From: an archaeon
GTDB taxonomy: Archaea; Iainarchaeota; Iainarchaeia; Iainarchaeales; CSSED10-239
DNA: 31,805 bases
Assembly: GCA_041657425.1 (NCBI GenBank)
Contig: JBBABY010000006.1
Coordinates: forward strand, 36,152 to 67,956
Direction of reading: 5' to 3'
The stretch's first letter is position 1. Every line of letters begins with the position of its first letter. The position numbers and the translations under genes were made by a program. Below the pieces are notes generated by a model. That model ran no database searches. It was not told the DNA's origin and was given only the letters and a program-made list of their open reading frames with translations. This document shows positions 5,659-12,044 of this stretch, piece after piece.

Positions 5659-5691
5659 GCACTGGACAGCCACCCCCCCGAAAATACCCCC
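5659..5691 (+). repeat. copy A of a 33-nt C-rich intergenic motif (GCACTGGACAG-N12-AAATACCCCC)
   Basis: GCACTGGACAGCCACCCCCCCGAAAATACCCCC. 27/33 identical to 12012-12044 in the same orientation. Lies 88 nt upstream of the antitoxin ATG. Confidence 0.8.
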
Positions 5692-5752
5692 ACTTATTTT
5701 AACCTATAGTATATTGTCTAGGCAGATCATAAATACAAATATAAATGTGTTG

Positions 5753-5768
5753 CCACATAAATATGTGG
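5753..5768. promoter_or_regulatory. inverted repeat CCACATA-AA-TATGTGG abutting the SD of the TA operon; candidate antitoxin operator (or SD-proximal hairpin)
   Basis: Perfect 7-bp arms with a 2-nt spacer, directly followed by / overlapping GGTGAT (5768-5773), with the ATG at 5779. An A/T-rich TATA-like stretch (AAATATAAAT, 5738-5747) lies just upstream. Confidence 0.45.
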
Positions 5769-5778
5769 GTGATGACAT

Positions 5779-6000
5779 ATGCCAAATATGACTTTAAGTA
5801 TTTCACAAGAAATGTATGATAGAATGAAAAATTATTCTGAAATAAAATGGAGCGAAGTTGCAAGAAAAGGATTTAAACAAAAATTAGATCAAATGGAAAT
5901 GCTTGAAAATTTAAAAGAAGTAAAACAAGCAAGAAAGGAATTTGAAGAAGGAAAAGGAATTAAATATTCTGATTTAAAAAAGGAGATGGGCAGAAAGTGA
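5779..6000 (+). CDS. type II antitoxin-like protein (RHH/CopG-like N-terminus plus charged C-terminal tail)
   Basis: - 73 aa; N-terminus TLSISQEMYDRMK...WSEVARKGF resembles ribbon-helix-helix antitoxins.
- Its TGA stop overlaps the GTG start of the RelE/ParE-like gene (GTGA at 5997-6000).
- GGTGAT SD lies 5 nt upstream. Confidence 0.65.
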   Translation: MPNMTLSISQEMYDRMKNYSEIKWSEVARKGFKQKLDQMEMLENLKEVKQARKEFEEGKGIKYSDLKKEMGRK

Positions 6001-6485
6001 TTTTCGAAATTTATATTACTGAAAAACATAAAAAGTTTCTAAAATCATTAGACAAAAAGATTGAAGATCAGATATTTAAAAAAATAGATCAATTAATAGA
6101 AAACCCAGATATAGGTAAACCACTAACAAATGAATTAAAGGGTTGTAGAAGTTTACATATTGGTAATTATAGAGTAATATATGAAATAAAAGAAGATCAA
6201 ATTTATATTTTGAGTGTTGGCCATAGAAAAAATATATACACCTATTTTAATCCAGATAAAAATGAAGAATTTACAACTGCTTTAAAATCACCAGATATGA
6301 AGTTATTTTATATAACTGCAGGAAAAGACACTAATAATAAGAAATTCATAAAGTTCATAAAAGATAAATTAGATGAATATGAAACAATAGAAGATATTGA
6401 ATATTGTAAGAAAGCAAGAAAACAAATAAAGAATGGAAAATTACTTACACACGAACAATTAATGAAAGATTTAAAATTGAAATAA
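5997..6485 (+). CDS. RelE/ParE-family toxin domain (about 85 aa) fused to a roughly 77-aa C-terminal extension homologous to the antitoxin tail
   Basis: The N-terminal part is typical of RelE/ParE and normally ends the protein: FLKSLDKKIEDQIFKKIDQLIENPDIGKPL...LKGCRSLHIGNYRVIYEIKEDQIYILSVGHRKNIY. Here 77 more residues follow. Residues 122-162 align without gaps to antitoxin residues 33-73 (15/41 identical). Confidence 0.75.
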   Translation: MIFEIYITEKHKKFLKSLDKKIEDQIFKKIDQLIENPDIGKPLTNELKGCRSLHIGNYRVIYEIKEDQIYILSVGHRKNIYTYFNPDKNEEFTTALKSPDMKLFYITAGKDTNNKKFIKFIKDKLDEYETIEDIEYCKKARKQIKNGKLLTHEQLMKDLKLK

Positions 6486-6487
6486 AC

Positions 6488-9662: not shown

Positions 9663-9667
9663 AGCAA

Positions 9668-9701
9668 TTTTTCTTTTTTTCTTATTTAGGTTAAAACCTA
9701 A
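9668..9701 (+). terminator. oligo-T tract plus hairpin TTAGGTT-AA-AACCTAA downstream of 9330..9662
   Basis: TTTTTCTTTTTTT, then a 7-bp perfect stem. Archaeal termination commonly uses oligo-T runs. Confidence 0.4.
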
Positions 9702-9774
9702 GTAAAAATTCCAGTTTATAAGCTCCTTGTCCCATAATATACATATATTTAATGATTAAAAAGAGGTAAAAATT

Positions 9775-11919
9775 ATGAATAAAAAAAACAATATGCCAAT
9801 GTGGCTATGGGGAATAACAACTGTTATCCTAGTAGTTGGTTTAATATTAATTTTTAGTAATGTTAAAACTAACACAAATGTAGTTGATAACACAATTCCA
9901 ACAACTACACAAGATACAACTTCAGGAGAATTTAAAGCTTTTAACAATTCTGATTTTGTAATAGTGACAAAGGGAGATCTTCTTAACATCCTAAAACAGA
10001 ACACCAGTTCAAGTAACGGTGGAAGAATGTACAAGTCTTCTGCTCTAGGAATGGAAACTATGAGTGCAGATGTTGCAGTAGCAAATGCTCCATCAGCAGA
10101 TGCAACTACTTCAGGAACTGGTTCTTCAGACTATTCAGAAACAAATGTTCAAGTTAAAGGAATAGATGAAGGAGATATAGTTAAGACAAATGGAAAGAAA
10201 ATATTTATTGCTAACCAAAATAAATTAACAATAGTAAACAATACAACGCCTCCATTAGAGGACATAACAGATTTAAAAGTTTCAAAAAATAAATCAACAA
10301 ACGACTACTATTATCCAGATGAGACAATAAGAACAATGTTAGTTGATAATGATTTACTATATGTAGTAACAGTAAAGTACAATCAGATAACAAAATTTGA
10401 CGAGTCTTTACTTTACCCACAAAGAATACAATTACCAATAACAGTAGTAACAACTTATGACACAACAAATGATTTAGAAAAACTAAACCAAGTAGAGATT
10501 GATGGCGACTATTATGAATCAAGATCAAAGGACGGAATAGTTTACATAATCACAAGCAACTACCAAATGGCATACAGTAATCCAATGGCAATTAAAGATT
10601 TATTAATAAGACCAATTACAGAAACAAAGAACGGTCAAACAACAACCTTTGAAAAACAAATGATAATGCCAAGAGATTCAACACCAGAGAATAAAACACA
10701 ATACACATTTACAACAATCAAGTATGATTCTTCAAAGGATTCAGTAATTGATAGTTTGGATATTCTTCTAGATTATTCAAATACAATCTATATGAGTAAT
10801 AATAATCTATATATTACTTCAAAGAAACAAACATACTTTACTCCTTGGTTCTTCTATAGAGGCGGAAACAATAGTAACTTAGATGTCTTTAAAGAAATCT
10901 ACAAAGATATTTATCCATCAAGTGTTCAAAGAGATATTGAAAGTAATATAGATGATGCAGAAAAGTTAGCAGTAATCTTAAATGATTATTACAACAGTTT
11001 AGATGAAGACGACAAAGAAAAATTATACAATAAGATACAAGAAGAAACAGACAACTATTATGCAAACATTAGACAAGAGAATGAAAAGACCATTATTAAC
11101 AGAATAGAGTTAAATTCAAACGGAAAGTTTGGAGACATAACAACCGGAGAAGTTCAAGGTAATCTTTTAAATCAATTTTCTATGGATGAAGATGCAGATG
11201 GTTATCTAAGACTTGCTGTTACAAAGACAGATAAAGAATACAAAAATGTAAATGCAATAGTTATTCTAGATATACAATTACAAGAATATTCAAAATTAGA
11301 TGATCTTGCAAAAGATGAAAGAATCTACAGTGTAAGATTTATGGGAGACAAAGTTTTCTTAGTAACCTTTAAACAAATAGATCCTTTCTTTGTTATTGAC
11401 TTAAGTGATAAAAGAAACCCAGAAGTTTTAGGTTACTTAAAGATTCCAGGATACAGTAGTTACTTACATCCAATAAGTGATACTCTAATACTTGGAATCG
11501 GCCAAGACACAAAAGTAAGTCAATGGGGAGGAACAGTAAACTCAGGAGTTAAAGTAACTTTGTTTGATGTTTCAGATTATTCAGACCCTGAAGAAGTTGC
11601 AACATATAAAATAACTTCAGAAAATTCATACACTCCAGTTCAAAACGACCATAAGGCCTTCATGTACATGGAATCAGAAAAGTTAATAGTTCTTCCAGTA
11701 ACTGAAAACTTTAATACAAGAGGTCCAGAAACAAACTTCTATGTTTTGAAAGTAACAGACAGCGATATAGTAAAGACAGAAATTATATCACATAGTGGTC
11801 AAAGTTATGGTAACATTCTAAGATCATTATACATAGGTAAAGAAATCTACACAATTTCAGACAATCAAATAAAAACCTACAATGTAGACACAGAAGAAAT
11901 GGTTTCAAAAGGAATTTAA
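9775..11919 (+). CDS. secreted/anchored beta-propeller domain protein (COG4880 / Beta_propel-like)
   Basis: N-terminal TM anchor MPMWLWGITTVILVVGLILIF. The C-terminal block IYSVRFMGDKVFLVTFKQIDPFFVIDLSDKRNPEVLGYLKIPGYSSYLHP matches the hallmark motif of this family as remembered. 714 aa. Confidence 0.75.
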   Translation: MNKKNNMPMWLWGITTVILVVGLILIFSNVKTNTNVVDNTIPTTTQDTTSGEFKAFNNSDFVIVTKGDLLNILKQNTSSSNGGRMYKSSALGMETMSADVAVANAPSADATTSGTGSSDYSETNVQVKGIDEGDIVKTNGKKIFIANQNKLTIVNNTTPPLEDITDLKVSKNKSTNDYYYPDETIRTMLVDNDLLYVVTVKYNQITKFDESLLYPQRIQLPITVVTTYDTTNDLEKLNQVEIDGDYYESRSKDGIVYIITSNYQMAYSNPMAIKDLLIRPITETKNGQTTTFEKQMIMPRDSTPENKTQYTFTTIKYDSSKDSVIDSLDILLDYSNTIYMSNNNLYITSKKQTYFTPWFFYRGGNNSNLDVFKEIYKDIYPSSVQRDIESNIDDAEKLAVILNDYYNSLDEDDKEKLYNKIQEETDNYYANIRQENEKTIINRIELNSNGKFGDITTGEVQGNLLNQFSMDEDADGYLRLAVTKTDKEYKNVNAIVILDIQLQEYSKLDDLAKDERIYSVRFMGDKVFLVTFKQIDPFFVIDLSDKRNPEVLGYLKIPGYSSYLHPISDTLILGIGQDTKVSQWGGTVNSGVKVTLFDVSDYSDPEEVATYKITSENSYTPVQNDHKAFMYMESEKLIVLPVTENFNTRGPETNFYVLKVTDSDIVKTEIISHSGQSYGNILRSLYIGKEIYTISDNQIKTYNVDTEEMVSKGI

Positions 11920-11945
11920 ATTCCTTTTTCTTTTTTTATTTTTCT
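11911..11945 (+). terminator. palindrome GGAATTTAAATTCC spanning the stop codon, followed by a long T-rich run
   Basis: Perfect 14-nt palindrome at 11911-11924, then TTTTTCTTTTTTTATTTTTC. Confidence 0.45.
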
Positions 11946-12011
11946 AATTTTGTGAAATTGAAATTTTCACATATCTAATTCTCAAAAAAACAACAAAGAT
12001 TTATATACTCT

Positions 12012-12044
12012 GCACTGGACAGGTGGCCCTCCGTAAATACCCCC
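12012..12044 (+). repeat. copy B of the 33-nt C-rich intergenic motif
   Basis: GCACTGGACAGGTGGCCCTCCGTAAATACCCCC. It starts 4 nt after a TTTATATA box (12000-12007) and ends 36 nt before the ATG at 12081. A 7-bp hairpin GTTACCA-N9-TGGTGAC (12052-12074) contains the SD. Confidence 0.8.

Follow-up and report, generated by a model that had tools for sequence, protein, structure and literature searches.

A shared promoter box ahead of recombination-repair and mobile genes in Iainarchaeales: a predicted regulon with an Orc1/Cdc6 paralogue as candidate reader

To our knowledge, an archaeal regulatory network for DNA damage has been established only in Sulfolobales, and we know of nothing on gene regulation in the tiny uncultured archaea of the DPANN type. 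Here we consider a 33-nucleotide C-rich direct repeat, two copies of which (A and B) lie in a 31,805-nucleotide stretch from an archaeon of the order Iainarchaeales (assembly GCA_041657425.1, contig JBBABY010000006.1; G000:C6:36152-67956, where G000 is the source genome). This stretch is the window, and its positions are numbered from its first letter. Several described systems invite comparison. In Sulfolobales, the protein Orc1-2 binds a DNA-damage-responsive element (DDRE) and activates or represses damage genes, its own gene included (PMC6061795; the same regulon is treated in PMC9738581 and PMC12490963). In the betapleolipovirus SNJ2, the Orc1/Cdc6 homologue Orf8 switches on the neighbouring small gene orf7 through a shared intergenic promoter after mitomycin C (PMC10123103). 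Origin recognition boxes (ORBs) and mini-ORBs, known from oriC of Pyrococcus (ORB1-3; PMC1904270) and of Sulfolobus (PMC3089459), have the core TTTCCACTGGA; ORB1 of P. furiosus reads ...ATTTCCACTGGAAC... with a C6 string, and the origin boxes are printed as ...CCCCCCAGAGTTTCATTTCCACTGGAAC... (PMC1904270). Bacterial SOS, with its LexA box, and the radiation/desiccation response motif (RDRM) of Deinococcus, with DdrO, each set one operator before genes for a recombinase, a single-stranded-DNA-binding protein, nucleases, dinD-like proteins, and toxin-antitoxin pairs.

Both copies of the repeat are probably sites for a regulator, that is, predicted operators or upstream promoter elements of a regulon in which a recombination-repair gene set has been joined by mobile genes. 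A preliminary description of the window, made from its letters, had reported the pair, and the report is accurate: copy A (5659-5691) reads GCACTGGACAGCCACCCCCCCGAAAATACCCCC and copy B (12012-12044) reads GCACTGGACAGGTGGCCCTCCGTAAATACCCCC on the same strand, 27 of the 33 positions are identical, and the two perfect boxes lie 12 nt apart. That such a match would hardly recur by chance is also borne out, since the pattern GCACTGGACAG-N12-AAATACCCCC, allowing up to three mismatches, occurs twice in the window and not once in 100 dinucleotide shuffles of it. The TTTATATA box placed 4 nt ahead of copy B is likewise there. The two copies and what adjoins them are as follows.

5659-5691, forward strand: copy A, of the long form ("type 1"); core GCACTGGACAG at 5659-5669, then CCA-C7-GAAAATA-C5
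5779-7567, forward strand: operon from copy A; antitoxin 5779-6000, ParE-family toxin 5997-6485, NurA nuclease 6488-7567
12000-12007, forward strand: TATA-like TTTATATA, starting at -12 from copy B, with AAAGA, resembling a transcription factor B recognition element (BRE), before it
12012-12044, forward strand: copy B, of the long form; core GCACTGGACAG at 12012-12022, then GTGGCCCTCC-GTAAATA-C5
12081-12917, forward strand: BRO-N/DinD-like gene of 278 aa behind copy B; Bro-N match at 4.8e-11

The operon behind copy A has overlapping gene ends, and its products match the profiles VapB (4.8e-05; a VapB/RHH-like antitoxin), ParE_toxin (1.1e-16), and NurA (1.6e-08). The product of the gene behind copy B passes Pfam Bro-N (43.6 bits, cutoff 25.6). 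Against NCBIfam PRK11525, the DinD equivalog, it scores 19.4 bits where the cutoff is 242 (E 5.5e-4, residues 138-226); because this lies so far under the cutoff, the name "DinD-like" given to it earlier holds for a distant likeness and fails as a family assignment.

The two copies belong to a larger family. In the source assembly (1.10 Mb in 20 contigs, about 29% G+C, 80% complete), the full pattern with up to three mismatches is found nine times, against none for the reversed control, and the 11-nt core GCACTGGACAG has 12 exact copies, against none for reversed and shuffled controls. Allowing one mismatch to the core gives about 18 copies with a common downstream architecture, which we judge genuine and which share the consensus GCACTGGACAG-CYA-C5-7. 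Sixteen of the 18 lie between open reading frames (ORFs), as against 11.8% of genome bases that are intergenic; of the other two, one falls near the end of a truncated gene and one inside an ORF that overlaps. Behind every copy, an ATG-initiated ORF of at least 30 aa begins on the same strand 54-146 nt past the start of the box. A genome-wide search with a tally of the genes that follow thus gives non-random placement and co-orientation with genes. One further match in the window is a chance word and not a family member, as it is coding and has no C-tract.

3132-3140, reverse strand: chance CACTGGACA word inside a T2SSE-type ATPase gene

Four contigs of the assembly (C3, C9, C15, and C16) have 37-62% G+C, against about 29% elsewhere, and zero box copies; they have probably entered the bin as contamination.

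The genes behind the box include several for recombination and repair: radA (Rad51/RadA profile, 9.5e-93), an RPA-like protein with an OB fold and a zinc domain (Rep_fac-A_C and OB fold in Pfam/NCBIfam), and a 3'-5' exonuclease like that of PolB (DNA_pol_B_exo2 match). Beside these stand four box-driven BRO-N genes with a faintly DinD-like middle part, the gene of copy B among them; genes that Pfam/NCBIfam assign to ORF6N, RhuM, YhcG/DUF1016 nuclease, and SocA/Panacea; a nucleotidyltransferase-like gene; two genes for winged-helix-like proteins; and two for conserved micro-proteins of 48-51 aa. The preliminary idea of an operator shared by the nuclease operon and the DinD-like gene is therefore supported and widened to radA, RPA, the exonuclease, and other genes. 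A third long-form copy (C6:35766-35798, reverse strand), one of the nine full-pattern matches, lies 354-386 nt to the left of the window's start and precedes a gene of 486 aa (about C6:34232-35692, reverse strand), a conserved protein with zero Pfam or PDB sequence matches; box and gene stay paired in five of five genomes of the genus examined. One of the smallest products is a basic protein of 48-49 aa (MFRNRNRYKDNICVMYKSVDDL...RRYFTRY; C10:27861-27717, reverse strand), and the long-form box stands ahead of its gene in four of four genomes (also at L050, L064, and L093, where L numbers denote loci of relatives and G numbers genomes).

Two direct repeats around accessory-looking genes had also suggested the borders of an inserted island spanning 5.7-12.0 kb, a reading to which we now give next to no credence. 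The genome holds some 18 copies, each before its own gene, and a DNA search of the genus for the 5.7-12.0 kb block, the genus being here the source genome and six others examined, found in these genomes neither an empty site with one copy nor a loss of the block. The gene order M48 peptidase, [box] antitoxin-ParE-NurA, winged-helix gene, beta-propeller gene, endonuclease III is kept in G002, G007, G005, G006, G009, and G003. What varies falls outside the bracket and is the BRO-N gene behind copy B. The syntenic block in six genomes of the genus, the lack of any empty site, and the position of the variable unit together refute the island. Within the block there is a second small variable unit: a retropepsin-like aspartyl protease gene (window 8535-9184, reverse strand) and its 78-aa neighbour, both missing from G002, where the region is otherwise syntenic.

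A lack of conservation at orthologous genes had been named beforehand as grounds for refutation; the box is in fact conserved upstream of radA, the NurA operon, and BRO-N, which favours a functional element. Across the genus, CACTGGACA matches number 5-19 per genome, against 0-5 for the control, and the recurring gene families each stand behind the box in 2-6 of the seven genomes. In the six other genomes of the genus, the box precedes ten BRO-N genes (in four genomes), seven YhcG genes (six), five ORF6N genes (four), five copies of the 486-aa gene (five), four of the 49-aa gene (four), and three each of RPA, radA, and the antitoxin of the NurA operon; genes like those for PD-(D/E)XK proteins, DNA methylases, RadC, and helicases, named here from sequence motifs only, also lie behind boxes in the genus. 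Orthologous promoters that keep the box in the genus are those of the NurA operon, BRO-N, YhcG, ORF6N, RPA, and the 486-aa gene. For copy A the orthologous boxes, both short-form, are in G002 (L058) and in G009 (L045), where the box stands ahead of a 44-aa antitoxin remnant and DNA homology returns at the start of nurA; for copy B they are at the BRO-N genes of G005 (L091), G006 (L084), and G009 (L057).

At radA, conservation extends beyond the genus. Among 30 relatives compared upstream of radA, from genus to order, the box stands directly 5' of the BRE/TATA in nearly all, although its letters drift: GCACTGGACAG in the genus; TCTCGGCCAG, GCTTGGMCAS, and CTACGGCCA in sister genera; and CACCGGCAAA, CAGTGGAAAT, CACCGGAAAT, and CAGGGGAAAC in other families. 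In two relatives (G022:C2:251200-254265 and G029:C67), radA lies in open frames of 1059 aa and 1196 aa with the profile match split in two, which suggests that each contains an intein. Box-like words are unevenly divided between the strands in some genomes, with 14 on the reverse strand and two on the forward strand of the complete genome G012, and eight forward and three reverse in G015.

The position of the box relative to the core promoter bears on how it might act. Of the 69 copies in the genus taken for promoter-form analysis, 22 have a short form, in which the box is followed by 14 nt containing (C/A)GAAA and then by a TATA-like 8-mer, which begins at +25 in 91% of these copies. The other 47, copies A and B and radA included, have a long form, in which CYA-C7-GAAAAYA-C5 replaces the spacer and the TATA; here CCCCCCCGAAAAYACCCCC stands at the TATA position, there is no TATA at +25, and a T-run and an AT-rich box follow the C-tract. 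The distance from TATA to transcription start in archaea is usually about 22 nt, so transcription at short-form promoters would begin near +54 and the box would lie at about -54 to -44, from which we infer that it would occupy the position of archaeal upstream activating sites. Four box genes of the source genome have their ATG at +54/55, which coincides with the expected start and would suit leaderless mRNAs for these genes. Orthologous promoters switch between the two forms, which therefore seem to be versions of a single device: the NurA operon has the long form in the source genome and the short form in G002 and G009, with the core kept.

The preliminary description had placed the box of copy B between TATA and start, a repressor position, and this can be extended to a model in which the box is a LexA-style repressor operator, transcription starting in the C-tract from a TATA 4 nt upstream and damage relieving the block. 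Such a model would account for the TTTATATA at -12 to -5 of copy B, for the TATA-like 8-mer that lies at exactly -12 in 28% of the 47 long-form copies, copy B included (and in none of the short form at the reporting threshold), and for the long form having no TATA at +25. As a general account we consider it quite improbable, since copy A, radA, and the remaining 72% of long-form copies have no TATA at -12, and the box lies 5' of TATA, the usual place of an activator, in 91% of the short form and, over the whole order, at radA. The repressor position thus may stand for copy B and that fraction of the long form and falls for copy A and radA. The two modes may coexist, by analogy with Orc1-2, which is reported to do both (PMC6061795).

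An element that is conserved, locally G+C-rich, and upstream of genes might also be a structured RNA or 5' untranslated-region element, riboswitch-like or a small RNA, and the hairpins described earlier behind both copies are indeed there.

5753-5768, forward strand: hairpin CCACAT-N4-ATGTGG behind copy A, just 5' of the ribosome-binding site of the antitoxin gene; fold z -0.4, not significant
12052-12074, forward strand: inverted repeat GTTACCA-N9-TGGTGAC behind copy B, enclosing the AT-rich box and the ribosome-binding site GGTGA

The second of these would sequester the ribosome-binding site of its gene, with a local fold z of -2.4 (six of 200 shuffles equally good), and similar YACCA...TGGTGA pairs occur in the promoters of BRO-N orthologues. 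Yet folding of the whole elements does not stand out from that of shuffled sequences (z -1.4 and 0.0), and within the box no segment has a pairing partner. The two hairpins are unlike in sequence and position, that of copy A having no counterpart at copy B, and the short-form box, being 5' of TATA, would stay untranscribed. Rfam at the gathering threshold reports only a tRNA at 831-993 in the window and nothing at copies A and B. An RNA-level role for the box thus appears very unlikely, and that version of the earlier proposal is left unsupported. A tRNA, attachment (att) site, or known RNA at the repeats was likewise considered and rejected, with no tRNA found in the window by ARAGORN and only the tRNA at 831-993 by Rfam. 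That tRNA gene (163 nt, reverse strand) scores 43 bits in Rfam, is missed by ARAGORN, and presumably contains an intron. Together with archaeal-type genes such as those for Orc1/Cdc6 and RadA, it identifies the source as an archaeon of small genome.

A further alternative makes the box a portable promoter carried by mobile cassettes, its letters shared through cassette descent and read by no dedicated regulator. Much in the genus would fit this. Copy B and its BRO-N gene make up a variable cassette of one gene, an insertion/deletion polymorphism: G000, G005, and G006 have it, G009 has the gene in truncated form, G007 lacks it, and G002 keeps a 44-nt remnant. Many box genes are of toxin-antitoxin, methylase, BRO-N, ORF6N, and YhcG types; GC-rich hairpin repeats adjoin many box copies; and a RhuM cassette with its own box sits within a truncated BRO-N gene (C5:7136-7476). 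A 60-nt module 5' of copy B is found again at other copies.

11947-12006, forward strand: upstream module ttttgtgaaattgaaattttcac...aaacaacaaagatttatata, recurring 5' of other box copies of the genus

We nonetheless regard cassette descent as an improbable full explanation. The core single-copy genes radA, RPA, NurA, the exonuclease, and the 486-aa gene keep the box at orthologous positions at the levels of genus, family, and order; the flanks diverge where the box remains in register with TATA; and orthologous promoters swap the long and short forms yet retain the core. Cassette mobility is best seen as an addition to the regulon, with mobile genes co-opting a host circuit, and not as a replacement for it.

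Several observations concern these cassettes in their own right. The 11947-12006 module, which has matches at L084, L051, L053, L074, and L044, contains a small hairpin (GTGAAATTgaAATTTTCAC) and a BRE/TATA. In G003, G006, and G009 it lies just 5' of boxes whose genes, YhcG among them, are unrelated, and it could mark a cassette junction or serve as a second promoter. The GC-rich hairpin-like repeats (gaagccgcttttttcaaaaggggct; gcgcgtcaaccgagcgaaaccggtt) adjoin the 5' side of box copies at L012, L069, L071, L077, L051, L053, L088, and L091 and at G000:C1:43820-43854. At C5:7136-8100, the RhuM gene with its own box (C5:7476) shortens the BRO-N gene to 101 aa and is itself truncated, covering positions 1-122 of 252 of the Pfam profile, so that the locus resembles a graveyard of such cassettes.

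Taken as a regulon, the box set would have one sequence-specific regulator, binding copies A and B in fixed register with the core promoter. By analogy with Orc1-2 of Sulfolobales and the viral Orf8, this reader would activate at short-form promoters, and it may repress where TATA sits 4 nt 5' of the box, as at copy B. Because the content comprises radA, RPA, NurA, an exonuclease, DinD-like genes, and toxin-antitoxin pairs, it suggests a DNA-damage or recombination regulon exploited by selfish genes, as in bacterial SOS. The likeness to SOS and to RDRM/DdrO extends to the gene set, which has a single operator before the corresponding classes of gene, and to mobile elements joining that operator. 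The differences are the archaeal promoter context, the non-palindromic box, and the position of the box 5' of TATA, which suggests activation over repression. No description of the box regulon was found in the searchable literature, and the set points to an undescribed SOS-like group of genes. Two considerations weigh against this reading: the start sites, the inducibility, and the sign of regulation are all predictions from the letters, and "DNA damage" is a guess from gene content, many box genes being of mobile or defence type.

As to what might read the box, the likeliest candidate, which we nonetheless hold short of probable, is the second Orc1/Cdc6 paralogue, Orc-B (363 aa, G000:C1:42586-43677; its companion Orc-A is at C1:60622-61836). 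Two Orc1/Cdc6 paralogues are present in all 41 genomes of the order sample and in all 71 of a class-level sample, so that among those 71 no lineage is without the Orc-B type and there is no negative group. Orc-A and Orc-B form two clades that separate at 100/100 support and each track the species tree, with branches several-fold longer for Orc-B. Orc-A belongs to the ordinary Orc1-1 type (2qby_A, 1.9e-78). Orc-B has diverged, though it still passes TIGR02928 at 227 bits, and would be a non-initiator paralogue. The winged-helix head (recognition helix and wing) is nearly invariant in Orc-A across the order while the box drifts, and that of Orc-B evolves faster than the rest of its protein: relative to G012, Orc-B is 50% identical overall and 33% in the head, as against 70% and 72% for Orc-A. 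Both paralogues retain the arginine corresponding to R341, the helix-turn-helix arginine that matters in Sulfolobus Orc1-1 (PMC3089459). No straightforward recognition code relating the Orc-B helix to the letters of the box is apparent.

Gene position also links the two. In the source genome, orc-B is separated by 245 bp from a 51-aa gene that diverges from it, and this spacer contains a box (C1:43855); the pair recurs with each genome's own box variant in G009, G008, G012-G018, and G021; the small gene (51-57 aa) is one family across genera and is driven by the box. Elsewhere the box takes the canonical position ahead of orc-B itself (G024), inverted beside the orc-B TATA (G036), or as a palindromic double box (G037). 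Comparing radA and orc upstream regions within each genome for shared G/C-bearing words of at least 10 nt, we recover the radA box of the same genome upstream of orc-B, no more than 420 nt away, in 11 of 31 genomes, the arrangement being divergent, direct, or inverted, and upstream of orc-A in none of 27. The two orc genes lie 13-23 kb apart on one contig in G000, G002, G005, G007, G008, G009, G012, G014, G015, and G021.

These features recall the Orc1-2/DDRE system, in which a short promoter element by BRE/TATA is common to DNA-damage and DNA-transfer genes, the reader is a non-initiator Orc1/Cdc6 paralogue with an AAA+ domain and a winged helix (a second paralogue being present here too), and the regulator's gene lies within its own circuit, as the linkage of orc-B to the box would imply here. 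The elements themselves differ: ANTTTC within AATAGTTTCRGWDTACTCWS there, GCACTGGACAG with a C-tract here, and the ANTTTC core (motif as given in PMC6061795) is absent from the box consensus. The targets differ too, being ups, ced, and tfb3 in Sulfolobus, with radA uninduced, and radA, RPA, and NurA here, and the box system is a prediction from sequence. SNJ2 Orf8-Orf7 offers a likeness of layout, the box-driven gene of 51-57 aa being divergent from orc-B; that system belongs to a haloarchaeal virus and has one known target, whereas the orc-B module is chromosomal and kept in the whole family, and its box is common to about 17 other promoters.

The form of the box adds a further, more tentative idea, namely that it derives from an ORB and was turned into a recombination-repair operator read by the fast-evolving second Orc1/Cdc6 paralogue. 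Copies in the genus read (T)TTTCCACTGGACAG or TTTCGCACTGGACAG with the C-run next, and CACTGGA within the box is identical to the P. furiosus ORB core. The copies reading TTTTCCACTGGACAG match ORB1 ATTTCCACTGGAAC at 12 of 14 positions, and the relatives' CAGTGGAAAT is the reverse complement of the P. furiosus ORB over ten of ten bases. In both kinds of site a G/C homopolymer string adjoins the core, and the long (about 33 nt) and short forms of the box recall ORB and mini-ORB, so that the box looks like half of an ORB dyad with its string. The resemblance has limits. The box has only half of the dyad, and its string is C where ORBs have G and lies nearer to the core. The boxes are also single, dispersed (scattered in the complete genome G012), in register with TATA, and oriented by gene, with no cluster around an AT-rich unwinding element.

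Part of this evidence tells against Orc-B as the reader and against descent from an ORB. The best PDB matches of Orc-B are Orc1-1 types (2qby_A, 3.5e-38; 2v1u, 7.5e-37), with A. pernix ORC2 at only 4e-12, so that from its matches Orc-B is not clearly an orthologue of Orc1-2. Twenty of the 31 genomes have no box near orc-B, among them five of the source genus, which have lost the adjacency, and the box-positive genomes belong mostly to one family and are non-independent. What stays constant of the core over the whole order is only about YRSYGGMMAW, and the likeness to origin boxes could be partly coincidental; the C-string, moreover, is on the opposite strand and at another spacing compared with the G-string of classical ORBs.

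Two other proposals were set aside. The box as a chromosome origin was rejected, as it does not cluster in G000 or in the complete G012, nor by orc-A or orc-B. No long AT-rich intergenic region with repeated boxes adjoins orc-A or orc-B in G000, and the canonical word TCCASTGGAAA is absent from G000 and rare in its family outside box copies. A 94-aa winged-helix protein (C4:93169) was considered as an autoregulated reader and is instead a regulon member in the genus, because the box is at its gene only within the source genus and its promoter in other families has AT-rich palindromes of its own (GTTAATAAC type). Winged-helix proteins of 90-105 aa (HSPTLNTVIMVEN...KGITWI; L104-L127) form a family whose promoters, in most families of the order, are overlain by strong AT-rich palindromes such as TAGTTAATAACTAATTATTATTAGTTAATAAC; the proteins are probably autoregulated repressors.

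For these archaea, a conserved box linking radA, RPA, NurA, and a 3'-5' exonuclease with genes of the toxin-antitoxin, BRO-N, ORF6N, RhuM, and YhcG types would amount to a concrete regulon. The use of this promoter by selfish genes could then be explained as listening to a damage signal of the host, in the manner of SOS-controlled prophages and toxin-antitoxin modules. It also gives a 33-bp site a named candidate regulator that can be produced recombinantly. Were Orc-B to be the reader, it would directly control radA, RPA, and NurA through a site visibly descended from a replication-origin site, and the Orc1/Cdc6 link would show the recruitment of an origin-binding protein together with its site into the control of transcription. 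With Orc1-2 of Sulfolobales and the haloviral Orf8, an initiator paralogue acting as a transcription switch in response to DNA damage would then be a general and ancient archaeal principle.

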